Of a stretch of 64,000 nucleotides of DNA, positions 601-62,067 are shown piece after piece. A program made the translations under genes and the position numbers. Where the stretch lies: NCBI GenBank assembly GCA_004022145.1, contig RCNU01000001.1. One strand, given 5' to 3'. Origin of the DNA: Paecilomyces variotii (taxonomy: Eukaryota). Numbering within the stretch: position 1 is the stretch's first letter; the number at the start of each line of letters is the position of its first letter. The notes under the pieces are model-generated. The model saw only the letters and a list, made by a program, of their open reading frames with translations. It was not told the DNA's origin and made no database searches.

Positions 601-677
601 GTTAAATAGATCTAGGTATATACTATAGTAGTATACTAGCTAAATAGTTTAAGGGCGAGCTTAATTTAGGGGAGAGA

Positions 678-852
678 TATTATAAGATATAGAGCCTTAG
701 CAGTGCCCTATAAACCCCCGGGAATCCCTAACTATTAGGCTATATAGTTTAGTGCTAGCTTAACTACGCTTAAGTATAGTTATTATAGTCTTTTTAGCTA
801 AGTAATTAAAGAATCTAGTTTATATAACCTAGAGCTAGCTAAGTCCTTAATA
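678..852 (+). mobile_element. Putative RIP-mutated LTR (~175 bp); partial inverted copy at ~267-345
   Basis: Purine tract aggggagaga (668-677) precedes tatta (RIP form of TGTTA); the unit ends in taata (RIP form of TAACA). The inverted copy keeps an intact TGTTA terminus at 267-271. Confidence 0.45.
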
Positions 853-2695: not shown

Positions 2696-2954
2696 TATAA
2701 TAAGCTATACTTAGTTAAAAAGCTTTAATAATCTTTAGCTAAATATTATTATAATAAATTTATTTTAATATTTTACTAAAGTAAAATCTATTTAAACTTA
2801 ATATTACTTATCTTAAGCCTTTTAATAGGACTAATTACTATTTAAGGACTTTCCTAGATACTCTTCCTTTCCTCTTCTTCTTTCTTTCCTTAAGATTTAG
2901 TATATTTATACTTGACCCCTAGCTAGTTGAACAAACTGCCTCAGGACCGTTACA
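2696..2954 (+). mobile_element. Putative 3' LTR of an LTR retrotransposon (~259 bp)
   Basis: Ends ccgttaca at 2954. Starts tataataa, the RIP product of tgtaacgg (reverse complement of the end). Preceded by purine tract agaaaaaaagaa (2681-2692); contains a TATA-like and a CT-rich segment. Confidence 0.55.
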
Positions 2955-3070
2955 ATAACTTTTTAAAGTACGCACTCGTTTGTATTACAGTAAAGATACA
3001 GTATATCTACTGTAATCTAGCCCCGGCAAAATCTGGTACGGTTTGCTAAGGGGATAACTAAACACAGTAG

Positions 3071-6083: not shown

Positions 6084-8262
6084 TTATCCTAGCCCGGTTC
6101 TAGAATTCTTAACAACATGGGCGACGGGATGCAGTATGCCCTTGTTATTCTGTGCCCCCAAGGCGGTCCCGCTACTCCAGCCCATTTTCTCGAGCATTGC
6201 CCTGCCCTTGTTCTCCGCACCGATTTCCGGCGCAGACGCGCCCACAATATCGCCATCCGCGTAGGAGGCTGCTGCGTTGGGTCGACCCCTTTTGCTCGAT
6301 GGCTGAGTGCCTTTGCCACCCGCATGACCTCTTGGGCGTCCTCCTCTGGAGAAAGCCTTGTCAATGTTGGGAATATCCCTCTGCGTGAATTTCGGCGTCC
6401 GAGACGTCTTATAGAGCACTGGAAATCTGGAGGGGCCATTTCCTCGTGATTGAGACTTCAGTGACACTGCGTTCGCGATCTCATGTACCAATTTTCTGTA
6501 TTCCTTACCCATCGGTGGCAGGGGAAGACTGTGACATAAGTTAGTTACGAACGTAGAAATCAAATTAGAGGGGGTAAAAACAATACCTCTCCGCTGATGA
6601 CAGGAGAAAGGACCTTATCTCCGACCTTACGTTGTCAATGCTGATGCCCTTGGAGTACTTGGCTTTCATATCGAGCTTCCCGGGTTTGCGGCCTAGCAAC
6701 CCTTGGGAACGAAGTTCCTCCCTTTGCTGCTTCTTGATCTTCTTCCTTTCCCGGTCGTTTCGCCATGCCCTTTCTAGTTGTTCTTCGGTTTCACTGTCGG
6801 ATAGCTCAAAATTGATGCCCCGACGCCTTCCCTTCGGCTTCTTCCTGAGACTGGGCCTATCAAAATCCATGATATCAAAGCCATGGTAAGGATCCTCGTC
6901 GAGGGCATCCGCCAAAGCCGACGCCGACACGAACATGCTTTCTCTCGAGGCTTTGTTCTTCTGTCTTGACCGTCCATCAGATTTCCCGGGTTTGGGGTTT
7001 GAGACTCGCGACATCCTAGGGTTCGATATCGAGTCGAACAGTACTATTTCATCGAGCGTAACTCCTAGTCCTTCTTGCATCTGGAGGGCACGTGCGAGTT
7101 GTTCGTCGCTGTAATCCTCGGATTCTTCTCCAGCCAGACTTTGCTCATCACGTTCAGAAGGCATGTCGTCGCCCTCGAGTTCAGAACTTGAGTAACTCAT
7201 TGACTCGTCACCGGAGGACACGATGTCTGATTTCCTGCTTCCTTTGGATTTCCGTTCTTGTTTGCCAACAATGACCTCGGAAGCCTGGCCGTCTGGTAGT
7301 TGACCTTCATCATCCGAGTCCGATGAATCAAGCGCATTATCTGTGTTCCATCCCTCGCGATCCTGATCGGACCCAGCACCCAGGTATTCGGGATCTATAT
7401 TCTCGATGTAATCCGCAAGGATATCAACCTGCTTGAATTCTATAATTCCTGTTTCCGCTCTTTTTGAAGTGATTCCAGGTTCGCCGGTCGTGCTGTGCGC
7501 ATGGAGTTGTGAGCTCTGCCCGACAGAATCTGATCCAGTATCGATGGCGGAAGATGTACCGTGGCCAGGATCAGCACGCTCGGTATCTAATTGCTTCTGA
7601 TCCACGGGCTTGACATTTCCACTGACTGCTGGAGACAAAAAATTGCCAACATCGTCGTCATACTTGCGGACACCCTCTCGAGACTTCTCACGAGAACTAG
7701 GATGCCCTTCGCTACGGGCATTTCTGCCGGGAAAGACAACCTCGTCCTCACTGGAATCCTCCGCACTCGAGAGTTCTAGCCGGGCGACCGGGTCGAGGAG
7801 CCCAGTCGTGGCAGGCTTATCACCAAGACTATCGACGAAAAATAGCGTGTTCCCAGTGTCCTCTGCTCCATCGATGGTATCTGTTGCTGTTTCGTGTTTA
7901 GGCTGTGTCTCTGCGTCCGTCTCCCGGGACTCCTGCTGTGGTTCTGCTGTTTCTTCGTTAAGCTTGTCCAAGTACATACTGCCGGCCTTCACAAAGTTGA
8001 CTTTGTTGAAGCGCAGTTGGGAGGTCTCCCAGGAAACACTGTGTCTTCCTGTGTTATGTGCCTCCTGCTGCATGGTAAGTTGGGATTCGGTATCGTCTGC
8101 GCAAGCCCTCATGTCAGTATCTCGTTGGTTGTAGTCGGGAAGGCACAGCTCACTATGCGTGGATGGGTGCGGTGACCCAGCCCAGTGTGAATTGACGCGA
8201 GAAGTCATCGCAGCAAACCCAGAGCGTCTGGAGCGTGCCTTTGCCTTCCCGGAACGAGCCAT
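6084..8262 (-). CDS. SQS1: R3H and G-patch domain protein (Sqs1-like)
   Basis: C-terminal R3H (RKLVHEIA) and G-patch (NKGRAMLEKMGWSSGTALG) domains with a long acidic middle. Start taken at MARSGKAKAR; probably two introns. Confidence 0.82.
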
Positions 8263-9109
8263 GGTTTTTTTGCTTGGGAACAATCCAGGTCCGGCAGTGG
8301 GTGGCAGCAAAAAATCTGTCCCCCTAGCAGACCCAATGTGGCGACTGCGTCGAGGTGCTCTCGGTCCAGCCAGGAGCCGGGACGTGTCAAACTTGTCCAG
8401 CTCCGGGGAACAGTGACATTGCTGTTGTGCCAGGCTCGACCTGGTTGTGCTGTTCTGCGTGGTCTGGGTGCTGTTGACAGTGGTCAGAAGAAACCGGGGG
8501 GTCAAGAAAGTCGGTATGGCCGGGAAGTGATTCTTCAAGTTGGTTGATTATTATTATTATCGGGGCTGACAGGCGCAGGTGGGGCGAAGGTCCAAGGCAG
8601 CGCTGAGGCAGCCATTCACTCCCCCACCCGTGATCATGGCGGCATGACTTGCTCCTGTGAGTTGTAGATACAACTTCTTGTATTTATTGATTTGTTTTAT
8701 TTTCCTATACTGGACTTGTACTCCTGGCACAGATAGATCGCGTTTTCTCTGTAAAAGAGCTTTGGAGGCAGTTTGTTGATACGCTCTCTCAGCTCTTGCG
8801 GGGTCGGGAATGACGTCCTGTCCCTTGATTTGATCACCCTTGCTATCTTTGCATGACTGCATGCGACTTCCTGTGCCTCTGAGGCGGCAGTTTTAAGTGA
8901 TCTTGTTTCCTATCTCTTGTCTAGCTCACATTGTTTGGTATTGGAGGTCTGTTTCTGGTGAGTTATATTTTCTTGGGGCGACAATGCTGCAGCATGTGCT
9001 CGCTACCATGCATCCGCAAATATATATATATATATATATTTACATGTACTGTATGCATGCCCAGTGAACCTCACGAGTATCCAACATCCATCCACCACAC
9101 ACTCCAGAC

Positions 9110-10637
9110 ATGAACAACGTCGACCTGGGCAGCTACAAGCGCATAGTACAATATTTCTGGGACCCGGAGCCAAAAAACGACGATGAGACCGGTTCATCCA
9201 TATGGTGCCTCGGCCGGGAATATGCCTCACCGTCACCTCCAGCCAAGAAAGCTGTGATCGCGAACGACTCAACGGGCAACGGTACCGCACCCACGTCCGG
9301 CCCTCAATATCCTACAGAGTCCGAAATCCCGGCCCCTGTATGCAAGATCAGCGACAGGCCCGAGGATGCTCACACCGGCGCAAGATCCGACGAGGGAAGA
9401 GACAACGGCTGGCCAGATGCCTTTCTCGATGACATGGAGTCGCGTATCTGGCTCACGTACCGCTCCAACTTTCCCATCATCCCGAAATCCGAGGATCCAA
9501 ATGCCCTATCCTCGCTGACACTGGGCGTGCGCCTGCGGAGCCAGCTCATGGAGTCACAGGGGTTTACATCTGACACTGGATGGGGTTGCATGATACGATC
9601 CGGCCAGAGCCTTCTCGCAAACGCATTGTCACTCCTGTGGCTGGGACGCGGTAAAAGACACACTCACTATTGCTATTATACTCATTGACTGACATACTAA
9701 CGATTACCCAGACTGGCGTCGGGGTTCTCGATCCCAAGAGGAGAGTAGACTACTATCGCTCTTTGCAGACCATCCCAGCGCACCCTTCTCGATACATCGC
9801 TTCGTACAGCAGGGCGCCTCCTCATGCGGCAAATACCCAGGAGAGTGGTTCGGACCCTCTGCAACTGCGAGGTGCATACAGTATGAGATCACCAAAAACC
9901 CCGATACTATCCCGCATGGAAGCTCACAGATAGCAGGGCATTGTCAAGGGAATGTCATGACGCTGGCTTGAACGTCTATGTCACAAGTGATACCTCAGAT
10001 GTATACGAAGATAAATTCAGAGCAATCGCACGAGGGGACTCTGGGAATATCACCCCGACACTGATCCTACTAGGTCTTAGACTGGGCATTGATCGCGTTA
10101 CCCCTGCATATTGGGAAGGGCTCAAAGCCATCCTGCAATATCCGCAATCGGTAGGCATAGCAGGGTAGGTTCCAAAGATAGTATTTCCTGATCGTCCATT
10201 ACCCACTCACTGACCATACTATCCAAAGGGGCCGACCCTCAGCATCTCATTACTTCGTTGGAGTCCAGGGGGATTACTTCTTCTACCTGGATCCCCATCA
10301 TACTCGTCCTGCCCTTCCATATCATGGGAATGATACAGCCTACAACAAAGAAGAACTAGACACTTACCACACCCGCCGATTGAGAAGACTGCATATCAAA
10401 GACATGGACCCGAGCATGCTGATTGGATTCCTTATCAAGGACGAGGAAGACTGGGCTGACTGGACCAAACGCGTCTCATCTGTCCAAGGAAAGCCCATAG
10501 TTCACATCTACGATAGTGAAGCAGTGTCGAATCACCCCTATGAACGAGAGGGCGCGTTGGACGAGGTCGAGACACTCGACGAGGATGACGAGGATGAAGA
10601 GGATCATTCGCAAGACGGAGATCCGGTCCCAACTTGA
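9110..10637 (+). CDS. ATG4: Autophagy cysteine protease Atg4 (4 exons)
   Basis: [13 protein letters not shown] catalytic Cys motif, IAGGRP, YLDPH and MDPSMLIGF motifs. Confidence 0.95.
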
Positions 10638-10987
10638 AGGGCTAGATATCAGGCGCAGGCGGATCAAGAAATGCAGTAAAACAGAAATACCCAAATATTT
10701 GCAGTAGCCAATTCAACAATTGATTTCATGTCCAGAATACATAAATCGTGCACTAAAGTGAGTTTGATTTGGAGCTCTAGAAAGGCAGAACAGAGGACCC
10801 TAGTTATGTTACACCCTGTCCACCTTTAAAATTGCACCCATAAAGACATTCGGCCCATGAAATAACAGCCGTCCCATGACACATTAGAGATCCCACTAAC
10901 ACCCGGTAACCAACCGCATAGCCACGGCAGACCATAAAGGCAAAAGAACAAAACAAGACAACCCTGGGAATAAAAAGACAAAGCAGC

Positions 10988-11572
10988 CTATTTGGCGGAA
11001 GAAGAGTACTTGGTGACAGCCTTGGTGCCTTCCGACACAGCGTGCTTGGCAAGTTCACCGGGGAGGATGAGCCTCACAGAGGTCTGGATCTCTCGGGAAG
11101 AAATGGTGGACTTCTTGTTGTAGGCAGCGAGCTTGGAAGCCTCGGTCGCAACACGCTCGAAGATGTCTAAAAGACGCGTCATTAGCATTCGAAGGCTCGA
11201 CCATCAGATGGTTAAGATGGAAAAAACAAACATACCGTTGACGAAAGAGTTCAGGATGGACATGGCACGAGTGGAGATACCAGTGTCAGGGTGGACCTGC
11301 TTGAGGACTGGAATTCGAATTCATGTTAGCGATGCTGAAACGCGAAGTGCAGATACGATGGACGCGTTAAGACGCGTCCATTGTTGATGGAACTCACCCT
11401 TGTAGATGTAGGAAGAGTAGGTCTCCTTGCGGGTCTTTCCACGCTTCTTCTTGTCGCCAGAGGCGGCGGTGGCAGTCTTCTTGCCAGCTTCCTTCTTCTC
11501 AGCAGGAGCCTTGCCAGCGGCGGGAGCCTTTCCGCCGGTGGAGGGCTTCTTCTCAGCGGCCTTGGGGGGCAT
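10988..11572 (-). CDS. HTB1: Histone H2B (spliced)
   Basis: [10 protein letters not shown]...[11 protein letters not shown] and [13 protein letters not shown]...[10 protein letters not shown]. Confidence 0.97.
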
Positions 11573-12297
11573 TTTGTCTGAAATTTGACGGGAGATTAAA
11601 TTTGGCGAAATTAGTGGATGTAAAGCTGAGAGTTATCACGTCGAGGTGAAGCGTGAGTTGATGATGGAAGATGGATGGATAAGTGGAAGAAACAGAACTC
11701 GCGGTGGATGAGGGGGGTGGCGTACTTATAGAGGTCGGCGAAAGAGCCGGTTGATCCTAGGTGTGCAAAAGCGACGGAATTTCAATACGGTAACAGGGTG
11801 GTATGATCTGTATGATTAGCAATGCGCGGACGCGTCAGACGACGTGTGGCAGGCGGCGCACCACAACAAGCGCGACGAAAGGGCGGGTAACGGATTACAA
11901 TACGGCGCCTACCCTGATCGGGAGCCAACCCTGCACTGGCAGCAGCAGCAAGAATCCTCTAATCCAGCCGGCTAGCGCGCGTTGGCCGCCGCCGACACGG
12001 CTAGCCTGGCACATTCTCCCAGAGACGCCAGCCTCTGCCCACCCGCCAGAACGTCTGATCCGCCTGCTGATTGGCCCGCCCGACTAAGCGAGAGGGTGAT
12101 CTGGAGGCATGCTCCTGGGCCCAACGTCACCCTCGCGCTGGTCTTATAAATGTCCTCTACGCCTCCACACTGCCCTCTCACACACCTGCATTCTGTTCCT
12201 CCGACTATTACTCTTCGGCCTGCCTGTCTAGCACTGTCTCTGACAACCATCTATCACCAAAACCAAAAACCCATTTTCACCCATCCCCTAAATCAAA
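11573..12297. promoter_or_regulatory. Divergent H2B/H2A promoter
   Basis: Head-to-head histone pair; TATA-like sites near 11727 and 12144; ACGCGT (MCB-like) near 11830. Confidence 0.6.
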
Positions 12298-13085
<788 letters not shown>

Positions 13086-13161
13086 TAGAGCATCTATGGT
13101 GGATAGCTCACGCCTGGAATGTCACCCTTTTTATGAATCATACTTGATATTATACTCCGTA

Positions 13162-13164
<3 letters not shown>

Positions 13165-13197
<33 letters not shown>
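13165..13197. repeat. (AT)n microsatellite
   Basis: Perfect AT dinucleotide run downstream of H2A. Confidence 0.9.
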
Positions 13198-13198
<1 letters not shown>

Positions 13199-13418
13199 GT
13201 AGCTGTTTATTTTACTTTCGCTGCTTAGTTTATAGTCTCGTATGATTGGCTATTAAACACCCCAACTCGACCAGAGTAAACGCGCCTCAATCTAGCGTTT
13301 GGTATAGATTTTATCGAGGAAAACATAATTTGAACATTCAATTCCCACGCTCAACCGCCAATGTACACCCTTTTTCTTCAGATGGTTACTATCGAGTAAA
13401 TTCCTCGTCGCAGGAAAT

Positions 13419-13969
13419 CTAATGGGCATGTCTCTCCGCATCTATAGGTCATGTTAAAACAGGGAAGCCACATAGGGCAACGGGGACGAATTAAACATAC
13501 AAGGCAATTCGCGAGCAGGAAGGTTTCTCTCGTATTTCGAACCTGGAGGAAATGTCAGCAGCACAGAATAGACGCTGTGAATATCAGATGATTGGGTGTA
13601 CATACCACCAGGTGCAGTGGGTGCTCTGTACGGGTCAGGGTGCTTCCAGCCCTCTAGCAACTTCTCCGTCTCTCTGAAAAGAACCTTTTATATTCCAGGG
13701 GTATCAGCCATGTTGTCGCATAAGAGCAGGGGGGAAGATGCGCACCTTCTGCTGACGCGGATCCCGAACATTTCTGTTGGCTTCGAAGAGGGATCGAATA
13801 TAGACGGCCTGGCCACGCCAGATGTGTCTGTGGACAGCCCAATCAAGCGCCAGCTTCAAGCTCCGTCGATAGAGAGACCTAATTGACCGCATTAGACGTC
13901 AATCGCGCACAGATAGGTCTCAAAACTATAAGCCAAGACGATCACATACGCTGCCTGGTTGAATGACAT
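13419..13969 (-). CDS. NDUFB9: Complex I LYR-family subunit B22 (NDUFB9-like), multi-exon
   Basis: SLYRRSLKLALDW LYR motif, WKHPDPYRAPTAPGG and SKYERNLP; exons bounded by GT-AG introns. Confidence 0.85.
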
Positions 13970-14576
13970 GATGGGAAGGAGTGTGTGAACGACAGGGCTT
14001 GGATGCGAGTTTATCTTCTGAAGCCACCAGGACAGCACTTCTCGTTCGTTTCCGCGCACGATATATCCGGCGCCCAGACCGTAGACTTGGGGAATTGGGT
14101 ATGGCGTCGAATTGTCCTTGCCGGTTAGAACCGTCGATGGGAAAGCTGGATGTCCGATGAGGAGCACAAGAGAAGAAGTGCGCAGGAGTGTTATCTTGTT
14201 CGCCGTAGAGCGTCGTTTACGGAGTAGCGTACTGGTAAATGTAATCCCGCGTAATAATGCTGAGTCGGGATTCGTGTGATTTGCCGGGCGCATGGAAGAG
14301 CATCATTCTCTGAGGGAAGTCCCGGTTCGCTCGGCCCGCCCCAGCTCGTTCGTCACTTAGTCCAGCTCTTCGATCTCTTCTCTTAGATTCCGGTCACCAC
14401 CGTTCTTTCATCACAACCAGCCTGAAGCGCGAGGAGACTCCTCTGGTTCTAATATACTTTCGCAGTATATAATCTGACCATTGGACGCGAAGCTTTATCA
14501 CATTATCTCATCAGGCCTTGCAGTTTCCATTGGTCGAGCCTACGGTCCAGTTTCTTCCACCAGCTATAAAAACACC

Positions 14577-16515
14577 ATGGCGTCTCGTTTACCGCTTTAC
14601 CGCTTGCAGGAGCAACAATTAATGACTGCTGCGCGTCTGGCGCAGAGGTCTCGCAGTCTTCATGTCGGAGCCTCGAGATCTCTGTCGTCCCTTGCCCTGC
14701 AGGGACGCGGTGCTGCTGTCCGCCCGGTCTCCAAGCCTATGCGTTCTGCGCTGCTGAGGTAAGGAAAGAATATATGGATAATGCAGCTCTGTCGATGTGC
14801 TTGACTGATGCTGGAAACAGCGGTTCTAAAGCAAACCTCGAGTCGAACTTGTTCTCTCTGGGCGGCACCCAGGTCCGCACCTACGGTAAAGCCATCTTCC
14901 GATAAACAGAAAAACACGCCTGTTCGCTGCGACTGACATAGTGGACACAGCCGATACCATTGTCAAGGTCCCCTCGATGGCTGAGTCGATTACGGAAGGC
15001 ACACTGAAGCAATTCTCCAAGCGTACGTTCCCCACATTTTTAAATATATCTGGAGGTGGTAGCCTGACGTGGTTCTAGAGATTGGCGATTACGTCGAGCG
15101 GGATGAGGAGATCGCTACCATCGAAACAGATAAGGTGAGCAGTCATGGATTGAGCGGTCAAAACGGTCGTATAGAAGACTTATACACTTCTAGATCGATG
15201 TTTCCGTCAATGCTCCCGAGTCGGGTACGATAAAGGAATTCTTGGTGAACGAGGAAGACACCGTCACGGTTGGCCAGGAAATTATCAGACTGGAACTTGG
15301 AGGCGAGCCGGCGCCGCCAAAGAAGGAGGAGGCTGGGGAAGGCCAGAAGCAGCCAGCTGAACCGAAGGCCCCCAAGGAGGAGCCCAAGCCAGAGCAGAAG
15401 ACCGAAGCTCCCAAGCCCGCTGAGGAGAAGCCCAAGGCCCCATCCGCACCGAAGCCCGAGCCCCCTGCACAGAAGCAGCAGCAGCAGCCTGAGACTACCC
15501 AGCAGCCCCAGCCCGGAAGCCGTGAGGAGCGTAGAGTGAGTGACCATTGAGCATCGCTCTTTTATTTTCCCTCCGCTTCTTGCTAATGCACCTTTAGGTT
15601 AAAATGAACCGCATGCGCCTGAGAATCGCCGAACGTCTCAAGCAGTCCCAAAACACCGCCGCTTCTCTGACCACCTTCAACGAGGTCGATATGTCTTCGT
15701 TGATGGAATTCCGCAAGCTGTACAAGGACGATGTTCTGAAGAAGACGGGTGTCAAGCTCGGCTTCATGAGTGCCTTCTCTCGTGCCAGTGTTCTCGCCAT
15801 GAGGGAAATCCCTGCCGTGAATGCCTCGATTGAGGGCCCGAACGGAGGTGACACCATTGTGTACAGGGACTATGTTGATATCAGCGTGGCAGTTGCGACG
15901 GAAAAGGGTCTTGTTACACCTGTTGTCCGCAACGCTGAGACAATGGACCTTGTGGGCATTGAGCAGGCTATTGCTAACCTCGGTAAAAAGGTAATGAGAG
16001 GTACTCAGCTTCATCCGTGATTGATCACTGACTTCTGGTTGTAGGCGCGCGACAACAAGTTGACCATTGAGGATATGGCCGGTGGTACTTTCACTATCAG
16101 CAATGGCGGTGTCTTCGGATCCCTCATGGGAACCCCCATTATCAACCTTCCCCAGACAGGTGAGATCGCATCCTTTATAGTACGTCCGGTAGTATTTGTA
16201 TTGACCCGGTTTAGCTGTTCTCGGTCTCCATGCGATCAAGGAGAAGCCCGTCGCCATCAACGGAAAAGTGGAAATCCGACCTGTACGTCCTATACTCGCT
16301 GGTGTATACTATAGTAGATTGGCATCGCTAACTTCTGGGCAGATGATGTACCTTGCTTTGACCTACGACCACCGTCTTCTGGACGGACGGGAAGCCGTTA
16401 CCTTCCTTGTTAAGGTTCGTTTTTTATTCCTGGGTCGCAGAATCCGTCCCACTAACCTTCTATTCAGATCAAGGAATACATTGAAGATCCTCGCAGGATG
16501 CTGCTTGGCGTCTAA
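14577..16515 (+). CDS. KGD2: 2-oxoglutarate dehydrogenase E2, dihydrolipoamide succinyltransferase
   Basis: Lipoyl domain ([13 protein letters not shown]), Pro/Glu/Lys-rich linker, [13 protein letters not shown] and catalytic YDHRLLDG. Confidence 0.96.
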
Positions 16516-18741: not shown

Positions 18742-19002
18742 TAAGGCAAAGAAAAGGGGGTATCAAATTTTTAAATAAAAAACAGCTAAAAACAGCTAAA
18801 AATAATTAAAACATTTAAATATTAAATTATAACCATCGAGAAGCTAAAGAATATACTTTCTCACTTAAAATTTATATCTAAACAGGAAAATAGATGACTA
18901 GATTAATAAGTGAAGCTAGAATCAGATAAAGACTGCATATTAGAATAGGAAATGGTAAGCGCCAAGCGGGCGGGCTGCCGTGCTTAGTTAGCGCTATACT
19001 TA

Positions 19003-20875
19003 ACGTAATTCCCGACCGACCTGATTACCCGCCCGACCTGATTACCCTATGAGCTTCCTTCGCGATTATTAAATCAGTTTTATTCAACTACTTACTATAC
19101 TACTAAAAAAGCTTATTTTATTAAAAAATCATATTAAATAGGAGGAGAGAATCTTATTAGCAATTAAAGCTTTAAAAAAAGATTAAATTCTCTCTATATA
19201 AAAGGCAGCGTTAATTTTTAATATTTTATATATAACCCTTTAAATAAGACTTTAAGGATATTAATTTTGCTATAATATACCTAATAATATATTTAAATTA
19301 AATAAAGTATAATAGAAATTACTTATATAATAAATATTATTTATAGATTTATAGAGATTAAGTCTTTAGCCTATATAAATCTAAGAGATAGATAATTTTT
19401 TTATAGATTAAGATAGCGGGGTTTAGTTAAGGAAGAACTAGGCATCTATATTTATTAAATATTGCCCTAAATTAAAAAATATTTATTTTAGATAATATAC
19501 CTATTAATAAGCTAAATATAAAAATCTAAAAATTATAAAACTCTATTTTAATAGTATTTAAATAACTAAAATAAAATATAAGATTACAGATAAAGATATC
19601 TATAACTTTAATAAAACTAGATATATAATAGGCTTTATTACTACTGCTAAGATAGTAATATAAGCTAAATATTATAAAAGATATTAAGTTATCTAACTAG
19701 AGAATTATAAATAGATTATATTAATTAAATATATTAACTCTATAGGCTAAGTAATACTGCTATATATTATCTTTAAAGATAAAACCTATATTTAAGGCTA
19801 GTATAAGGATCCTAATATATTAAAAAACTAAAGAATTAAAGTTAATAATAATAGTTAGACTATAGACTAGATTAAATTATACTAGCTTAAAAAAGTTTTT
19901 ATACCTTAAGTAGCTTGCTAGAAGACTAGATAATATTTACTTTTTATTCTAGACAGGTATAGCAGTTATTTAATCTTAAAATTTAATAAGATATATAGTA
20001 AATATAATATTATTTTAGTCTATATATTAATATACTTATTAGCTTTCTATTAACCTTTAAATATTAGCTGCTTTAAACCTTTAAAAGAAGCATATAATTA
20101 TTTAGTTTAAGATAAGCATTAGTAAGGGTTTAATTATATCAATAAGCTTAACTTTCTAAGCATTTATCTTAAAGCTTATATCTAAATATTTATTTTAAAT
20201 ATAATTAAAAGCAGATTTAAAGCAACTAGTTTAATCTCTTTTAACTTAGACAAAGTGCTTAAATAGTTTATTATTTAATTAAATACTCTTATATTATTAG
20301 AAAGCCGGTTAACTGCTTCTATAATTTCTTTATCTAAAATATTATAGAATTATAAAGATTTAGAGAAATATAGAACTATACTTTAAGGCTTACTTAAAAA
20401 ATAAATCTAAAATCCTCTATCTTCTAATTAGCTAGTTCTAAATTATTTTATTTAATAATATAAATACTTAATAAGTGAGAAAATCTTTATAATATATAAG
20501 AATTAAAATCTATACTTAGCTAATAAAGAACTCTAGCAAAAAAAATAATAATCTAATTATTAAATAAGTACTATATAGGATTTAAATATTAAAGAAGATT
20601 AAACTCTTATATAAAAGAATAATAAAGCCAGCAAAGCTCTTACTAGCACTATAGAGCAAATAGGCAATTTAATTATATAGCCGCGCCAGCGGGCGCTGCT
20701 AATATATTTAAATTATAATATTAGGGGCCATACTAGAGTTAGATATCCTAATTAATATAGCAATAGGATATTGTTAAATTATACTACTATTTTGGTAGTA
20801 AAATCGGACAGTATTTCATCTACATGTTTGGGGTGATCAGGTCGGGCGGGTGATCAGGTCGGTCGGGAAATATGT
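19003..20875 (+). mobile_element. Fot1/Pogo-type (Tc1-mariner superfamily) DNA transposon, RIP-inactivated, ~1.87 kb
   Basis: ~45-bp TIRs (acgtaattcccgaccgacctgattaccc... and ...gggtgatcaggtcggtcgggaaatatgt) flanked by TA on both sides. Transposase relics: EERILLAIKAL, DIYNFNKT (from DIYNFDET), ILDRYSSY (from ILDGHxSH), PLNISCFKPLK (from PLDVGCFxPLK). Confidence 0.92.
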
Positions 20876-21239
20876 TATGATAGCTTTGGCGACGGGCAGC
20901 TCCCGGCCTAGACAGGTTTTGTTTAGCCGCTTAGCGCGACTTTTTGTCCAGTATCGAATTGAAGCAGCGCCTGTTCTCCCACGATTCTGTCTATTCGTTA
21001 ATTGCACAAAGAGGTTGCAATTGCTGCATCCGCTGGCTCCTTGTGCAAGAGTCGAAGCCGACTCCAGGAGTCCCCCTTATTCCCGCCCGCTATCCATGAA
21101 AAAGTCTGGTGCGTACATAACCTACACAGCACCGCTTCAACGCAACGCGTTAATGTTTCTCAAAGGCCCAAAGTAGCTGACCCTTCGCAGCTTGATACAA
21201 CACAATCACGCAGACTAGACCCGGGACTCGAAGCATGCG

Positions 21240-46176: not shown

Positions 46177-47618
46177 GTCTCCTAAACGACAGAAGAGGCG
46201 CATCTCTGTCCTCCTCGATGCGCCTAAGATTGATGTATGCATGCTTTCTTCACGTTCACATTTCCTGTTCCCTGGGAATTCCCCACGCTTTTCTCGATGT
46301 GCCCGGAATCGTGCGGCGCATCCATGAAGTCTGACAACCTAGTCTTTTCTATTTGCGCTATGTTGTTTCCCTTGTATTCTGCCTAGTGGTTCTTATGATA
46401 GCCGTGCGATGACAGTGCTACCAGCCATGTATCATAATTCGTTTACGCGACGGTTTCATTTGCTTTGGGTTGAATACTCGGTTCGAAGTTCGTTTGCTTT
46501 CGAAAGTCATGGTGCACTACACGAGCCCGAGCCCCATGTCAGTCCGGCTAGGCCTGAAATACCCTTCCTTCTGTTGAATGTTCTAATATTATGGAAGGTT
46601 TTTGATTCTGTTTTTCTTTTTCTTTTTTTCTTTTTCTGATACTGTCCTACAGACACCAAAGGTTGGGGATCTGTCATCGCACCATAAGTTCTGTGGATGT
46701 CCTCCATGAATTATTAACTCTGGACTGGGAAATGGCGCAGGGGTATGAACGGGGATCCTGCGTGAGAAAGATTTTTGGCAGTCAGTGATATCACTCTGTT
46801 TTCAGCCTGACTGAGCAATTCATAACATGCATGCTTCGTCTTCAATCCCTTTCGGTTATTCCTTTTTCTCTCCATATTGTTTAGTTACAGGCTCATTGCC
46901 AAGTCTAGGGACTGCGTCTCGGACTATAAAGTCATAGGTAATATGTGTTGCTGATGGCCTAAGCGTTATGCTTGCGCCTGTTGCGGGGGTGCAGGTCGTC
47001 CTCGACTCTTTAGCAGCTGTCATTCTCAAGATGATGATGTCCTTCTGATCGAGTCCTCGAACTTAGTCAGAAGTTCTAGTTAGTCTGGAAGATGGTCTGC
47101 AAGGACGAGTAAATGAAAGATCCGTGATGGGGGGAATGGGATGACCATGATAAGAAATTAGGTTTATCCTAGTTGTTGTTTTCATGTCTAAAAGAAAAGA
47201 CAAAGAAACTGAACGAAGCGCGCAGCCACTGGGATGGGATAAGCGCACTGGACCCTGTATCACCCATTCCTACGCTAAATCTTCAAAGGTTTGGTGTACA
47301 AAGACCTGCAAACCCAATATAGAGTGGTCGAATACGGGGGATAGTCAGATATTCATGTTCCTAAGAATTGTTGCGGTTTGAACCGGACAGGCTGTGTTTA
47401 GATCAAAATTGGGGCTGTGGATCTACATATGTAGTAGAGTACGTCCCCTACATAAACTAAGCATAAAGTTCGCTACTGATCCAGTTAAACCTCCCCATAC
47501 TTAATAATAATGTGCCTGCGAGCATGTTTAACCGCTCTCCCCACCTTAGAGGCTAAATGGCTCCTATAAATACTAACTTACCCTTCTACTTACTCGGTCA
47601 GGTTCTTAACGGCAGATC

Positions 47619-49232
47619 ATGATGGCCTCCCGCCGGGCGTTTGCGTGGCCAGCGGTGCTGGTGCTGGCCCTTGTTGTCGCAGGCACGTCAATGTTGAGCA
47701 CGGCACGAGTATATATGATCGAGCAGGCATTATGTCGTACATATTACTCCACTGTTTCTCCTGACAAGATATTACCGAGCGGCAGTGTCCCTGAGCAAGA
47801 GTGTAAGTTAGATCAAATTCAAGCAGATGTCGCACTTTTATCGGGATGCTTTCATGTCAGCAGTTTGGTCCCAGGTGAGATTGCTCTTCTGTTTTGCCAG
47901 TTTGGTCTTGTTGTTTCTCACAGAAATCTAGGGTTGATTGCTGCACCTCTGTATACACGTCTTGCCTCCATCCTTGGTAGTAGGACAGTCCTCCTTGTGA
48001 GTGTCTGTAGTTTTACGCTCGGAATCTGCTGTTTTGACTTAATCTGTATGTCAATCTCAATCAACTACAAGAGATCAATTGACTAATCCTAACTGAGGCT
48101 ACTTCTACGGGGTCTTCAACATTTGGATGATTCTGTTTACCAACCTGTTCGACCTGATCGGAGGAGGCACGACGCTGCAAAAAATCCTGCTCTACACTTA
48201 TATTGCGCAAAGCACCGATCAAGACTTACTGTATACATCTTTGGCTCTGTTCGTCATCTGATATATGACTAATATAAGGGATATAGGAGCAACCGGTTGT
48301 ATTTTGTCAGCGTGCTACTTCTGGGGACGTCGTTCTTCGCATCTTTCTTCGGTTCACAAACAATGAAAGCTAGCGCATGGTTGCCCCTGATGATTGGCAC
48401 ATTTCTCTGCAGCCTTACCATTCCGTGTGTCCTCTGCCTCCGTAGACAGGCGAGGGAGAAACCAAAATACGATGAACTCCCTATGGACGATGTGAGTGGA
48501 ACACCTGATGAACCGGACAATGATGAACACGAACACGACGAGAAGTCTCCGGGGCTATGGAGTACCATATTTCGGGCTATGACGGTGGACCTTCCACTGT
48601 CATTGTCCCCAGTCGCCGAAGCACTAAAAGACCCATTGGCAAGAGTGATGATGCTTATTTTTCTCATAATCGATATCAGTATGGCGGTGCTGGTCACGTT
48701 CACTCAGTTTGCATCAGCACTCTCTCATTGGAGTCTCGCGGACGTCAATGCTGTTACATCTTTCCACTTGGTAGTGAGCACCACAGCCCTCTTTGCCCTG
48801 CCAGTCCTGTCCAACTGGCTGGTTAGAATACTGCATTCTACCAAACAGCGGGTAGACCTGTGGACCGCGTCATGGAGTACAGTTGCAAAGATCATCGGGA
48901 TGGTTGGTATTGGACTTGCACCGACGCAATGGACCTGCTTCACGTCATTGATGATATATGCCCTTGGATATGGACTTCCAGACGCCCTTCGTTCGTTGGC
49001 AACCTGCGGGCTTGAGGACGAGAGATCGATCCAGAGCCTGTATATGGGGATAGGTCTGGCGCAGGAAGTGGCAGGCCTTGTAGGAAGTCCCATTTGGACC
49101 ACTATATTTTATGCCACTCTTGATGGCGATATTCCGCTGCCAAAGGGATCACATTTCTTGGCCGCTGCGTCCTTGTTAGGTATTGCTCTAGCTATAATAA
49201 TTAGGGTACTGGCGAAACGTCTCAAGACGTGA
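47619..49232 (+). CDS. MFS transporter, UstT-like (4 exons, ~482 aa)
   Basis: Exons 47619-47874, 47932-48045, 48098-48230 and 48287-49232 keep frame. Many hydrophobic helices, a luminal loop IEQALCRTYY...CKLDQIQ, LIGGG and a central acidic loop. Confidence 0.82.
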
Positions 49233-50361: not shown

Positions 50362-51117
50362 CTAGTAAGTCTCCTTCCCCATCATAGTTCCATGATCATG
50401 ATGATCGTGCCCATGAGCTTTGGCAATCACAGTGCGATCAGAATGGAGCGCTACCCCAGCCTCAGTTACGATCTTATCCAACGGATCCCTCTTCAAAAAC
50501 ATCATCTCGCAGTGATCCAAATGTGCCAGATTATTATACCGATGTTCAATGGTCGTCCCCTTTTCTGGAGCAAGAAACATCTTTTTCCAATAATAAGCAC
50601 AATGAACCAGATGCCAATGATGCGTGGTGAAGAAATGCCCTCCCGTCTCGGGAAGCATGGCGACTTCGTGAAGAGTCATCGTCTTGGTTTTATTCTTGTC
50701 TGCGTAATATGGCCAGCTTCCATCAGGATTTGGGCCTGATTTCTCGAACTTGGCGATGAGATCGTCGTTTCGACAAGCGGGAGGTAGCCACGCCGCAGCG
50801 ATAGAGTCGTATTTGCAGTTGTTCGAGAGGGCCTCGACTATGGTGTCGCCGCAATTGCAGGAGACTGTCCTTCGCGATTGGATCAAGGTATATGTTCTGA
50901 ATCCCAGGTCAACGAAGCCGAAGGTCGCGAGGGAAACGAGCAGGAGTATTTTGATCCGCGAAGCAAAGGACTTTCTGGGAGGATTGAATTGATTGTGCCC
51001 CATTTCAGTATTGCAGTCGGTCTTGTGAGATTCTAGGCTCAGCTCAATGCTGTCCCTTTGGTGAAGATGCTCATACTTCATGGTGTCTTGTTTTTGGAAG
51101 AGCCATTTTGTCAACAT
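50362..51117 (-). CDS. UstYa/DUF3328-like oxidase with two HxxHC motifs (divergent subtype)
   Basis: One N-terminal TM helix, CNCG...EA...C.YD....WLP..C, HLVHC and HLDHC, and a His-rich tail. Alternative start ATG at 51081. Confidence 0.75.
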   Translation of the reverse strand: MLTKWLFQKQDTMKYEHLHQRDSIELSLESHKTDCNTEMGHNQFNPPRKSFASRIKILLLVSLATFGFVDLGFRTYTLIQSRRTVSCNCGDTIVEALSNNCKYDSIAAAWLPPACRNDDLIAKFEKSGPNPDGSWPYYADKNKTKTMTLHEVAMLPETGGHFFTTHHWHLVHCAYYWKKMFLAPEKGTTIEHRYNNLAHLDHCEMMFLKRDPLDKIVTEAGVALHSDRTVIAKAHGHDHHDHGTMMGKETY

Positions 51118-52303
51118 AGCTGCTTATTATTTGATGGTTGGTGTATCACAGTTGAGATGGGAGTACTCGGTGCTACTACAACGACCCTACGGCAGAAATT
51201 TATCACAGCATAGATTTGCCCTTTGGCTAGCTGAGGCCTCACCTCCCCTTCGTTTCACCTGGTTGATGTAAAATAAACTCACCAAGATGCGCATGCTGAT
51301 CTTTTCACCGATATAATGATGATACCTTGCATGAACAGGTTCATGCTGCATCCCGCACGCCATGCAGCCATAATGCAAAAGCCCAAAAGTTCATTGTACT
51401 ACGTAGTGACCACAAACATGGCTGGCTGAGAGTGGAGAGTTGTGGCTCCTATACAGAAGAGCTATATCGTGCAGAATACGCTAGTTAAATACCTACTCTA
51501 ATGCTGTTCACGCTAATGCAACTAATAATACATGTCGGCAAGGGCTCTACTACTGTACGTACTACGTAGATGTAAACACTATAATAACCAACCCCGAAAT
51601 ATTGCCGCCCAGATCCCAATATATAAGCTCTCTACTACGATGCCTAATAGAGTGCAGGCCGGATTGAGGGGAAAGCGGTTATATACTATTGGCGCGAGGC
51701 TATTCGAGCAGAGGGGAGAATCCTCCTGTTTGGTCATGTCTGGATCTGGCATACTAAGAACTAAACTAAATTACGTATAGCTTCAAATCATTTAGCGACA
51801 GTAAATGCGTGCCCACTGCAAATCATTTCTATCCTACTTCACGCTAAAAATCCCTCGATGAGCTGGTGCCACCGAGAAAGTTACCAGCAATATTGTTGGT
51901 CAGCTTCTTCAGTCAACAGCTCCAAGTTTCAGTGGCCTTTCGTATGTGCGGGGTTATACAAATTGAAACTACGCATATTTCAGTACAAAATGAGACGTTC
52001 ATGGCTAGTACGTGATCCGTAATTGTAACTATAACAGAGTTTTCCTATTCTTGTATGTCATCGTAGACTAACTATGTGCATACTTCGTCATAATCTGAAA
52101 AGATCAACTCGATTATCTCTGCTTTCCCATGGAGAACCCCACATCTAGGAAGGGCATACAAGCTGAGAGCTCCATATGCTAAAGTCAAGCAGAGATAAGA
52201 CTAGGAAGCGGAGAAAGCAAGAGCACCAATTTCACGATCAGTCACATCGGCACAGGCATTCCTTGAAGAAATGCAGCTCGAGCCAATCTGTCTCTCCATC
52301 CGT

Positions 52304-52830
52304 TTAGGGGTAGAACGGAATGGCCTCGTCGTCAGCGCTGCGCTTTGGGTAGAACGGAATGGCTTCGTCGTCTGCGCTGCGCTTAGGATAGAACGGAATG
52401 GCCTCATCGTCAGCACTGCGCTTTGGGTAGAATGGAATGGCCTCGTCGTCCGCACTGCGCTTTGGGTAGAATGGAATAGCTTCATCGTCTGCGCTGCGCT
52501 TAGGATAGAACGGAATGGCTTCGTCGTCCGCACTGCGCTTTGGGTAGAACGGAATAGCTTCGTCGTCAGCGCTGCGCTTTGGGTAGAACGGAATGGCCTC
52601 GTCATCTGCACTGCGCTTAGGATAGAATGGAATAGCTTCATCGTCTGCGCTGCGCTTTGGGTAGAACGGGATGGCTTCGTCGTCTGCGCTAGCTACAAAT
52701 TCGATATTATTTTGTCAGTATCAGGCATAGCAAATACGTCCTTGGAAGCAGAGCTGGCCATACCGATAGGAGCCGCCGAGATCAATGGAAGACCAACGGC
52801 CAGCAGGGAAAGTACAAATTTGAGCTGCAT
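52304..52830 (-). CDS. Kex2-processed repeat precursor peptide (candidate RiPP precursor), 151 aa, 2 exons
   Basis: Exon 1 52830-52764; intron 52763-52693 (GTATGG..CTGAC..TAG); exon 2 52692-52304. Translation: MQLKFVLSLLAVGLPLISAAPIA-(SADDEAIPFYPKR)x9-SADDEAIPFYP*. Confidence 0.93.
52307..52690 (-). repeat. 10 tandem 39-bp coding repeats (last unit lacks KR)
   Basis: Unit agc gca gac gac gaa gcc atc ccg ttc tac cca aag cgc; all variation is at third codon positions. Confidence 0.95.
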
Positions 52831-53952
52831 TTTGCACTAAATACTTTCAAATGTTGAAAGATACGGCGTCAAGTAGTTCTGGGCTTAGGTACGGAATGGA
52901 CAAAAAGAACAATGTGATGGTGTTACTGTTCAAGGATCTGTAGCTGATTTTATAGTTCTACAGGTATAGATGCAACTCTTTCAGTTCTTCATATCGACCA
53001 AGTCAGCATACGGCTCCATTGGTGGTACACTAGGAAATGCCCACAGCGACGGCTAGCTGAGAAAACTCGGTGAACGACGAGGCGTAGCCAGTTCTGGTCA
53101 ATGTGCCTACATATCCTGCATATGTAGTACAAACTTGGATTCCATTCACAACTGTCCAATGATAGCAATTATGGAACACGCTCGGTGTCGCCATCTGTAA
53201 GGGAAACAGGCAAGACTTGGATTTCGTGCAAAACCTGCATATTCATTGAAGATCGAATGCTCTAGGATGTGGATCTGCTGCTGTTGAAGCACTCGATTTA
53301 CCAATGTGTTCATGTCCAGACAGTACTGTGCTGTATCAGCTACACTGATATGTATCATGCCCATGCTCGGATGCTTGATATTGAGTGAGGAAATGATCCA
53401 TAAAGGTAAATATGAGGCTGGAAGCAAACTTGAACTGGCCTTAAATTATGAGGGTTTGGGATTCAAGAACCACGATGTTCTCCATTTGAGGTTCTGTGGA
53501 AAGACCAGCAGCTTTTGTTTACGCCCCATCTGGCCTACATACATAGAGTTTAAGCCAATGATGCATCCGCGCACGATCTGCGGCGATCTGTGAACTATCT
53601 AAAGATCTATTCATCTACTTCAGTGGTCCTCACAGCAAGCCACAGCCGGCTGCACGTTGGGAAACCCTTCAGCTGATACCAGTCGCTCTGATATACATAG
53701 GGACAGGAAGCGGCCTCTCTTCTAAGTCTGTCACCCCGCCTTTTCTCATACCCCTTGCTTTCGGCGAGCAACCCCTCAATCGGTATCAATTCAATCTAGC
53801 TATGCTGTGAATACTGAATACTAATTATACGTTACCTGAGCCGGTGACGTTGGGAGCGTGGCATTTCCTGCTAACCGCGAAACCTTGAATAAAAAAAGCT
53901 CTCTGCCAGACTATTCTTTGCAGATTATTCAAGTGAATCGTCTGAGCTTAAG

Positions 53953-54961
53953 ATGATGGCCCTGGGCGAATCTCAATATCCTCAGGCCCCGGATGACAGA
54001 TCTGGTAATTGGCGTGAGAGTATGGATGAGAAGGAGCCAGAGCAACCTTTACTGACTGTCCCCGGCAATTCGGTACACGACACAGAGCATGGCCCTACAG
54101 GCTGTGTGCAATGGCAGAGGCGCAGCTGGGGACTCTGGCTCACTATCTTGAATATCTCGGTCTGGCTGGTAACGATTTTCTTCATTTTCTCGCCGTTTGC
54201 TAGCCGTGCTTGCCTCCGACACCTGAGTGACCAAGAGAAATGGAAAGCCGTCTCTTATTATGGTAAGACCACTGAATATTATATATCTATATATATTCTT
54301 CAATAATAGAAAATCATCTAACGACGATTCAGCCCCCGTTTTTGACCGTTTCGAGATCCCTCGCATAGTCCAAACGACCAACGGGTCACTATATGATACA
54401 TACCCACCCTCGATCCTGCGAGTTCCCAAGGGACCTGAGGCAGACGCAGAATGGTTTCGGATAGGAACTGGTGTTTTCCCACTCATAATCTCATCAACTG
54501 AGATCCGCAAACTGGGAAAAGACCCCTCTGTGGCTGTGAAAATTCCACCAGAACACGGATACGGCGATGATGCGTACCTGGCGCAAACTGAAGTGTTCCA
54601 CCTTCTCCATTGTCTCGATATGCTTCGCAAGGAGATCTCCTACGAACATTATTACTTCCCGAAGTTCGGAAACAATCCCGATGCTCAGCACCAGGCTCAT
54701 ATCGGACATTGCATAGACTTGCTTGCACAGTCGATTAAGTGTTCAAGTAGCGTCGATGTCATCTTGTTCAACTGGGTCGAGGGCTGGAATCAGCCATTTC
54801 CAGACTTTAAAAACAGGCATGTTTGTCGGGACTTCGAGGCACTTCTTGACTATGTCAATGACCATTCTGTTCCGGTGGAAGTGTTTCAAGCCATGAAGGA
54901 ACCGCCCGAAGGTTATGTTCGTTTACCAGAGCCAGCTCCCGTGAACAGGGAGGGTGCATAA
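53953..54961 (+). CDS. UstYa-family (DUF3328) oxidase, 2 exons, ~312 aa
   Basis: Exons 53953-54262 and 54333-54961 (GTAAG..CTAAC..CAG). TM helix, EADAEW, VFHLLHCLDMLRK, HIGHCIDLLAQSIKC and H.CRDFE. Confidence 0.92.
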
Positions 54962-55496
54962 TCGATGAGGATCAACTCAGCTGGCTTACTCACTTCTAAT
55001 AGATATGGACAAGAACTTCGGATAACTTAGCTTTCATCGTAAATATGTAAAGGGACGTCCTCAGGTCAGTTATTGCTGTCTGTCGGGAAGATACAGTGCC
55101 CTGCCACTACTCCCAACTCCCAGGACTATATTCCACTACAAGATATACTAGTAGTTATCTTCAGTTAAGTAGGTATGTGGGTTGCAAATGGCCTCACTCT
55201 ATCTCCGTCCGTCCCAAATATTAAGCAATCAGCACTGCAGGAGCCGGTTACAATATCATATAGATTGAACGGCTTTGAGGAAAAGAAGAAGAATGTTGAT
55301 TTCCCTAGCATAAGGATTTGTAGGATTCTACATGTTGACAACCTGTGAATTTCAATTGTCGGCGGGTTTGGATGCACAAGCAGGGGTTGCCGACTGCCGT
55401 AATAAATTGTTGCCGACAATCGGCGTTTCCACTGTCGAGCTTCTGTCATAGACAACATCGTCCCGCTCATCGAGTGCAGGGAGGGCGTCTACAGCA

Positions 55497-61221: not shown

Positions 61222-62067
61222 TCATCTTGGAGGCGCATCAGTAAGTGGCACATAGCTAACCGCAAAGACCTTCTCCTTATGTACGGAGCCATCAGCCTTC
61301 TTATCTACGACCCAGATATACTGACCACCGCCCAAACCGAGGGCACTCAGCGCCGCTCCACCACCTTCCTCTGACTCTACAGGAATGAACAGGCGTCCCG
61401 GAGCACGCAACTGCTCCACGAGAACAGGATGGAGCTTATCAGCCGCGGCCCCAACATGGATAGCATCGTAAGGCGCGTCTTCCGGCCAACCTTTGCGTCC
61501 GTCTCCGGTGACGAACTTGACTTTTCCCGACTCGAGCATTTTACGGCCCTCGGGGGATTTGCTCATGTTCTTCTTCGCGAGGTCGACGAGTTCTTGGATG
61601 TGATCGATTCCAACGACGTAGCCGTCCTTGCCGGTAGATGGGCCATCGATCAGATTTGCGAATACGTGAGTGAGGTAGCCTGATCCGGAGCCAATGTCCA
61701 GGACACGAGAGCCGGGATGGAGGAAATCGATGAGATACTCGCAGGCATGGCCATGCATATGGGGAGCGGAGATGGTGGCGCTGTATCCGATCGGCTGAGG
61801 GGAGTCGGAGTATGGGGCGGAGGGCGCATAATGAGCGCGGTCGACCTTGGAAATTGGACGATTAGCTTGATTGGTACTGGGAAGTGAAGTTCTGTGATAG
61901 CTTTACAACCTGAACTGGGGCCCAAGGATGTAAAGTATAATGACAGCGGTGAAAGAAATACTTACGCCTAGCATGGCATTCTTTACTCGTTCATTCTTGA
62001 TGAGACCTGCCTCGAACAGGTTCTCGATCAGTTCGCTGTTTGTTTGTCCAGAACAATACCACGCCAT
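61222..62067 (-). CDS. Protein-L-isoaspartate O-methyltransferase (2 exons)
   Basis: MAWYCSG, TISAPHMH, VLDIGSGSGY, YDAIHVGAA, YVPLTD. In-frame upstream ATGs at 62175 and 62292. Confidence 0.92.

Follow-up and report, generated by a model that had tools for sequence, protein, structure and literature searches.

A spliced Paecilomyces variotii gene with ten KR-bounded SADDEAIPFYP units, probably the precursor gene of a small UstYa-type RiPP cassette

What is made from a fungal gene that consists largely of ten copies of one short peptide, and whose reading frame does not appear in a list of open reading frames? We addressed this question for positions 52304..52830 (minus strand) of a 64,000-nucleotide stretch of Paecilomyces variotii DNA, hereafter referred to as the window. 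The initial annotation had placed here a precursor gene in which a 71-nt phase-1 intron separates an exon with the ATG and a signal peptide from a repeat exon, and the coordinates and the phase proved to be exactly as described. The start codon is the ATG at 52830. Exon 1 (52764..52830, minus strand) is 67 nt long and comprises 22 codons plus one base of an Ala codon whose other two bases lie in exon 2, which makes the intron one of phase 1. The intron (52693..52763, minus strand; 71 nt) starts with GTATGG, contains the branch-type motif CTGAC and ends with TAG. Exon 2 (52304..52692, minus strand) stays open until the TAA at 52304-52306. When the exons are joined by their coordinates, the spliced coding sequence is 456 nt long, or 151 codons and the stop, as had been claimed. 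The default, bacterial-style list of open reading frames contains two shadow frames, 52201-52641 (minus strand) and 52271-52840 (plus strand), as well as the read-through of exon 1, 52693-52830 (minus strand, 45 aa). The true repeat frame is absent from the list, again in line with the earlier reading, because it has no start codon.

The peptide encoded by the 22 codons of exon 1, MQLKFVLSLLAVGLPLISAAPI, forms a hydrophobic N-terminus, as had been noted: 9-residue Kyte-Doolittle windows score 2.0-2.7 over residues 3-12, and S-A-A follows. Its hydropathy and its conservation among relatives (see below) point to a signal-type sequence. The repeat array (52307..52690, minus strand) is composed of ten 39-nt units, each encoding SADDEAIPFYP, with a period of 13 residues. 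All ten units are identical in amino acid sequence; KR follows nine of them and the stop codon directly follows the last, so that the translation agrees with the proposed series of units ending in Pro-stop. Tandem Repeats Finder described exon 2 as an array with a period of 39, 9.8 copies, 85% matches, no indels and a score of 556, and no other array in the 64-kb window scored 100 or more. On average, two of the ten DNA copies differ by 4.6 of 39 nt (45 pairs). Ten of the 39 columns are variable, all of them third codon positions, and none of the differences changes a residue. Confinement of the variation to third codon positions identifies the reading frame and excludes a chance or shadow frame. 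It also shows strong purifying selection on each copy, with drift at the synonymous sites. We also observed a higher-order periodicity of 117 nt, or three units, at 52308-52690 (89% matches, versus 85% at 39 nt), which suggests that the repeat may have grown by duplication of unit triplets.

RNA across the intron 52693-52763 had been proposed as a check of the gene structure. A run search for the stretch gave 24 runs (18 matching part of it, 10 recorded as RNA; 8 studies), and four of them, X1-X4, were compared over 51800-55200. Run X1 and the DNA runs share one species label, and X1 is classed as RNA only by guess; run X4 is a food-fermentation metatranscriptome (cDNA) from a different study. 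The joint 52692>52764, which skips exactly 71 nt, was found in contigs of these two of the four runs, and hence in two studies (X1, depth 14746, side 34; X4, depth 344.1, side 52). The CT..AC found on the plus strand at this joint corresponds to the GT..AG ends of an intron in a minus-strand transcript, so the predicted joint is present and a minus-strand spliced transcript exists. Runs X2 and X3, RNA libraries of another study, gave contigs of low depth (13-24) that are unspliced through the introns of both the precursor and the neighbouring UstYa gene and have many differences from the window sequence; these contigs may represent DNA carry-over or pre-mRNA of another strain. A further joint with CT..AC ends, 52986-53045 (58 nt), was seen upstream of the precursor promoter in one X1 contig at a depth of 4.2, and may derive from a minor minus-strand spliced transcript.

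The ends of the precursor mRNA could also be placed. Contigs of X1 extend up to 52914, and TATAAA is at 52954-52949, giving a 5′ untranslated region and core promoter at 52831..52954 (minus strand). Contigs of X4 have loose poly-T ends before 52016, 52023 and 52093, one contig per site, which we read as the poly(A) tails of the minus-strand precursor mRNA. The 3′ untranslated region thus lies within 52016..52303 (minus strand), with poly(A) sites near 52093, 52023 and 52016 and a length of ~210-290 nt. In X1, the contig depth was 7268-14746 for the precursor and 964.6 for the UstYa gene, and in X4 the corresponding values were 968.8 and 44.8; these depths may hint at high expression of the precursor, although contigs cannot rank genes. 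The segment 51800-55200 was near-identical in X2-X6, which are food-fermentation metatranscriptomes of at least two studies and represent two strain variants. From these near-identical transcripts we conclude that the fungus and the precursor transcript occur in food fermentations. One difference between strains, T to C at 52472, falls in the repeat and changes CCA to CCG, both of which encode Pro. Taken together, the results establish the precursor as a real, expressed and spliced fungal gene.

The gene has the layout of a KEP, with a hydrophobic N-terminal signal sequence, as indicated by hydropathy and conservation, and ten tandem units with nine dibasic KR sites between them, where at least three such units define the type. 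Of 7878 KEPs, 22% lie within 15 genes of a DUF3328 gene, a neighbour that pheromone KEPs almost never have (PMC7329392). The Paecilomyces precursor has such a neighbour. A UstYa/DUF3328 gene lies at 53953..54961 (plus strand), with exons 53953-54262 and 54333-54961, a 70-nt intron and a product of 312 aa. It is divergent from the precursor, the two start codons being 1122 nt apart. Its intron splice joint and a poly(A) site near 55025 were seen in both X1 and X4. The open reading frame 54227-54961 matched Pfam PF11807 with an E value of 2.5e-53 and 181.6 bits (cut-off 25). By eye, the protein has an N-terminal hydrophobic stretch, presumed to be a transmembrane helix. Its HxxHC motifs are at residues 125-129 and 158-162 of the open reading frame, and across 29 relatives the His and Cys of these motifs do not vary. 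Altogether, 61 of 89 candidates were UstYa relatives, the best being a Paecilomyces variotii protein with 99% identity. The locus therefore combines what is expected of a UstYa-dependent RiPP: a DUF3328 gene near the precursor, two HxxHC motifs and a Tyr in the repeated core.

Two HxxHC motifs in one frame were found only in the two genes that flank the precursor, among the 865 stop-to-stop open reading frames of at least 40 aa in the window. The initial annotation was right to read the gene as a KR-repeat precursor, and left the divergent UstYa gene and the second HxxHC gene unmentioned. The two flanking genes argue for a biosynthetic precursor, beyond a mere Kex2-processed repeat protein. 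As a separate observation, an open reading frame at 15586-16308 (minus strand, 241 aa) has a single HxxHC motif and matches no Pfam family at E <= 1e-5.

The second gene with two HxxHC motifs, at 50362..51117 (minus strand), lies on the downstream side of the precursor, in the same orientation, and encodes a conserved membrane protein of 251 aa with a long transmembrane helix. Public data include an annotated copy with 100% identity (P0064). Pfam gave no family for it at E <= 10, and it is below the PF11807 gathering cut-off. Among 30 of its relatives, three gave weak PF11807 matches (best E value, 0.015) and six matched DinB_2 (best E value, 2.2e-4). BLASTP aligned it with UstYa over both motifs (E value, 0.033), and hhalign, applied to the 30 relatives of the HxxHC protein and the 29 of UstYa, aligned both motifs over 91 columns with a probability of 20% and an E value of 0.0011. 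When HMMs of the two families were run on 264 proteins, a background made up mostly of unrelated repeat proteins, the first eight non-family matches of each belonged to the other family, at 4-9 bits. In view of the weak PF11807, hhalign and BLASTP support, we keep the protein outside PF11807. It is a candidate second oxidase, and its kinship to UstYa is suggestive but weak. Its relatives are Ascomycota membrane proteins of ~240-300 aa, with invariant S-C-N-C-G and W-L-P-P-x-C-R motifs.

We compared predicted structures of the two proteins. The AlphaFold2 model of the HxxHC protein (pLDDT 81.3) has strands at 149-152 and 203-207 and helices at 153-173 and 184-195, and that of UstYa exon 2 (pLDDT 71.6) has strands at 81-83 and 145-148 and helices at 86-101 and 117-136. 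In both models, the two HxxHC motifs are on consecutive helices with strands at the flanks. The known DUF3328 enzymes depend on O2 and binuclear copper; they are type II membrane proteins of the Golgi, endosome and vacuole, in which each HxxHC lies on one helix of a coiled coil, two coppers are bound and C(sp3)-H bonds are attacked (PMC12435403). The predicted layout of the motifs matches this published picture. None of the 38 rows of a Foldseek search of the HxxHC-protein model against the PDB had E <= 0.001, and VIA-align against 48,161 chains gave none with Z >= 5, the top rows covering the transmembrane helix only. Prediction of a complex between the lumenal parts of UstYa and the HxxHC protein (alignments unused; score 0.00, mark 0.34) spoke neither for nor against a heterodimer.

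Relatives of the precursor were sought in protein collections. A word-indexed search, in which 8000 candidates were scored, gave two precursor matches and no Paecilomyces variotii copy at 70-224 aa. A search of 5.8 billion protein clusters contained both neighbours from Paecilomyces variotii and no precursor in the same size range. The precursor gene thus seems to be unannotated, and it exemplifies how intron-split short precursors escape RiPP mining based on open reading frames or gene models. An exhaustive profile search with the precursor gave 144 matches at E <= 0.001; inspection of 23 of them identified four true relatives and, in addition, P0203, the other 18 being unrelated repeat proteins. 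The four are AJ80_09370 of Polytolypa hystricis (P0001), a fragment from a metagenome (P0002), a gene model of Aspergillus steynii (P0099) and P0129, a model whose N-terminus looks wrong. In P0203, the KR-bounded units are 13 residues long and contain L-I-P-F-I-Y. The exon-1 peptide is identical to the N-terminus of P0001 at 15 of 22 residues and to that of P0099 at 14 of 22. Among 30 units collected with a loose pattern from five precursors, 27 have A-I-P-[F/Y]-Y exactly. The four residues before a conserved Glu-Ala vary across precursors yet are acidic.

Relatives elsewhere in the Eurotiomycetes retain the neighbouring genes as well as the A-I-P-[F/Y]-Y core. In Polytolypa hystricis, three consecutive locus tags, AJ80_09369, AJ80_09370 and AJ80_09371, denote relatives of UstYa (72%), the precursor and the HxxHC protein, respectively. 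P0099 consists of a signal peptide, six KR-bounded units and the C-terminal two-thirds of an HxxHC protein, and is probably a chimeric gene call that bridges two neighbouring genes; such a fusion would place the precursor and HxxHC genes adjacent and co-oriented in Aspergillus steynii. In six further species, locus tags, an indirect sign of adjacency, differ by one to three between the UstYa and HxxHC relatives: Emydomyces testavorans, A. tanneri, A. arachidicola, A. bombycis, Knufia fluminis and Colletotrichum truncatum. In the metagenome scan, close UstYa relatives were on short contigs only (locus L001, 100% identity, 1535 nt; locus L004, 77%, 1205 nt), and no orthologous precursor locus was found. 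UstYa genes of lower identity (53% and 32-34%) had precursors of other kinds beside them: KR-repeat precursors with four units containing W-Y-D-I-T-Y in L002 (4772-5023, plus strand) and L003 (430-681), and with four units containing M-Y-Y-K-G in L005 (2853-3233, minus strand) and L007 (2806-3402, minus strand). These loci illustrate what looks like a general pairing of UstYa genes with KR-repeat precursors of their own.

We consider it probable that, in Paecilomyces variotii or a close relative, the gene encodes the substrate of a small RiPP cassette of the UstYa (dikaritin-like) type. Non-ribosomal and polyketide pathways use DUF3328 enzymes as well (PMC12048977), so adjacency to UstYa is by itself no proof of a substrate role, and 78% of the KEPs have no DUF3328 neighbour, many of them being thought to remain unmodified (PMC7329392). 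The gene could thus encode a Kex2-processed repeat protein whose ten peptides act unmodified, as linear signals or antimicrobials, next to a UstYa that serves another pathway. This explanation seems unlikely to us: no NRPS or PKS gene was found among the open reading frames scanned in the window, the order of precursor, UstYa and HxxHC genes recurs in Polytolypa and the adjacency of precursor and HxxHC genes in A. steynii, and the distant UstYa genes of L002/L003 and L005/L007 each adjoin a KR-repeat precursor of their own. A precursor of an alpha-factor-type mating pheromone would have the same general layout of a signal peptide and KR-separated repeats (PMC9233826). We regard it as very improbable, in that Pfam MF_alpha did not match the precursor at E <= 1 (the sole match was DUF7493, below its cut-off), pheromone KEPs, three exceptions apart, lack DUF3328 genes (PMC7329392), and the precursor is expressed in vegetative and fermentation samples. 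Long shadow open reading frames cover the repeat on both strands, as they might in an uncleaved secreted or wall-bound repeat protein or in a non-coding tandem repeat with chance frames, but this is the least credible explanation of all, given the dibasic site at each unit boundary that is absent only after the last unit, the variation restricted to third codon positions of a single frame, and the splicing by which an ATG and a hydrophobic N-terminus are joined to this frame; the non-coding version is refuted.

The UstYa-type cassette appears to be small. On one side it is bordered by a DEAD-box helicase gene at 44.7-46.2 kb, and on the other, from ~56.2 kb, by genes for a mitochondrial carrier, an RF-1-type release factor, a TPR/DnaJ protein and PCMT; the remainder of the window contains housekeeping genes. 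Within these borders, a multi-exon candidate for an MFS-like transporter gene lies at 47610..49232 (plus strand; open reading frames 47610-48086 and 48273-49232). It obtained a language-model Atlas feature score of 0.98 to MFS clusters, and Pfam gave no match for the two open reading frames. As the assignment comes from language-model features alone, we treat the putative MFS transporter as a lead only. No tyrosinase, tailoring methyltransferase or cluster peptidase was found among the open reading frames scanned at 39.8-63.2 kb, a scan that can miss small or heavily spliced genes. The sole methyltransferase in this interval is the PCMT protein-repair enzyme (61222-61902), which lies beyond several housekeeping genes. 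Pfam searches near the precursor gave no SET-domain methyltransferase and no S8 kexin or peptidase, and those on the precursor, the shadow frames and small intergenic open reading frames gave nothing above the cut-off.

How does this cassette compare with the known systems? Dikaritin precursors have an ER signal peptide and repeated cores that are cleaved by Golgi Kex2, and DUF3328 enzymes with two HxxHC motifs define the class (PMC12048977, PMC9233826, PMC7329392). Judged by gene layout, the cassette is nearest to the minimal asperipin-2a type. The asperipin-2a clusters of Aspergillus flavus consist of a precursor, the single DUF3328 cyclase AprY, which is copper- and O2-dependent (PMC12435403), a reductase (described in PMC12048977) and a transporter. 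They share with the present locus a KR-repeat precursor with a core Tyr, a UstYa-family enzyme and a transporter (a candidate here), and neither has a tyrosinase or methyltransferase. They differ in that no reductase-like gene was found here, a double-HxxHC protein with no Pfam family being present instead, and in that the core is A-I-P-F-Y.

The ustiloxin and phomopsin systems resemble the Paecilomyces locus in the signal peptide, the Kex2-separated cores, the acidic residues before the core and the enzymes of the UstYa/UstYb type, and are known for the ether link between the side chains of Tyr and Ile (PMC9233826, PMC6339444). In their cores, however, Tyr is N-terminal to Ile, whereas Ile precedes Tyr here, and the tyrosinase, methyltransferase and often peptidase of their clusters (PMC12048977) were not found among the scanned open reading frames of the window. 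The epichloecyclins depend on the precursor GigA, the DUF3328 protein GigB, the SET methyltransferase GigC and KexB, the DUF3328 enzyme being required for cyclisation (PMC10540207). Their cores are INFKIPYT and IGFKLPYR, with a downstream Tyr that comes after Pro and is joined to the N-terminal Ile or Pro (PMC10540207), an Ile...Pro...Tyr order shared by the Paecilomyces precursor. Unlike them, the present core has no Lys, the only Lys of the unit being that of KR, the cassette has no SET-domain or kexin gene, and the units are of 13 residues instead of 27-mers with a follower peptide. None of the 61 UstYa relatives found was a protein from Epichloe or Ophiocordyceps. The KEPs, including yeast alpha-factor, share the signal peptide and the tandem short KR-bounded units (PMC7329392, PMC6339444); the DUF3328 neighbour sets the Paecilomyces precursor apart from those of the pheromone type. 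In summary of these comparisons, the locus has the tested features of KEPs and of UstYa-dependent RiPPs, and lacks the defining features of the ustiloxin/phomopsin, epichloecyclin and alpha-factor systems.

A pathway can be proposed for the UstYa-type cassette. The hydrophobic N-terminus would direct import into the ER and then be cleaved off. A Golgi kexin would cleave after every KR, and a Kex1-type carboxypeptidase would strip Lys and Arg to yield ten 11-mers, the last copy needing no trimming. The membrane-anchored, copper- and O2-dependent UstYa would then act in the lumen to form an oxidative link between the side chain of Tyr and a C-H of a nearby core residue, possibly joined in this cross-linking by the second HxxHC protein. 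Exopeptidases would trim the variable acidic N-terminal spacer, and a small cyclic peptide would be secreted. The Pro-stop of the last unit had been taken to fix the C-terminus of the released peptide. This holds for the intermediate left by Kex2 and the carboxypeptidase. In relatives, A-I-P-[F/Y]-Y is constant but the residue following Tyr is P, K, E or M, so the final product may not end in ...FYP. The side chains of Tyr and Ile are linked in ustiloxins and phomopsins, where this is the norm, and also in epichloecyclins (PMC9233826, PMC10540207). By analogy, Ile is our best guess for the partner of Tyr in the core, and a tentative one, with something over a third of our belief at most.

A wider reading, which we find possible and rather doubtful as a whole, is that the precursor, UstYa and the double-HxxHC protein with no Pfam family constitute a widely conserved, uncharacterised RiPP family of Eurotiales, Onygenales and, by locus tags, Chaetothyriales and Colletotrichum. 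The second enzyme would then be a new, highly diverged branch of binuclear-copper HxxHC oxidases, and the product a new small A-I-P-[F/Y]-Y cyclic peptide in which Tyr is linked to Ile or Pro, oriented as in epichloecyclins, and which Paecilomyces would make in food fermentations. In the literature we found no fungal RiPP with an IPFYP, AIPFY, AIPYY or IPYYP core, with the proviso that supplementary KEP tables may list this unit type, and no RiPP of Paecilomyces variotii in the titles and the beginnings of abstracts among the papers listed. Nagano et al. 2016 reportedly catalogued UstYa-linked precursors of Aspergillus, and a unit of the SADDEAIPFYP type may be among them.

Among the fungal RiPPs of the UstYa type are potent antimitotic mycotoxins, and to our knowledge only a handful of products of this type have been described. 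As a natural-product lead the precursor is a good one, of a kind already known. It defines a specific peptide as a target: the computed [M+H]+ is 1224.5419 for the 11-mer and 836.4189, 707.3763, 610.3235 and 636.3392 for forms trimmed at the N- and C-terminus, each lowered by 2.0157 for every oxidative cross-link. The minimal cassette of three or four genes is suited to heterologous expression, with the 50362-51117 protein as a candidate new partner enzyme. The presence of transcripts in food-fermentation metatranscriptomes means that the product may occur in food, which is a reason to identify it. Finally, two AT-rich blocks of the window, 1-3000 and 19001-21000, have a GC content of 0.14-0.28, TpA/ApT ratios of 1.3-2.05 and (CpA+TpG)/(ApC+GpT) ratios of 0-0.78, and look like remnants of RIP-mutated repeats.
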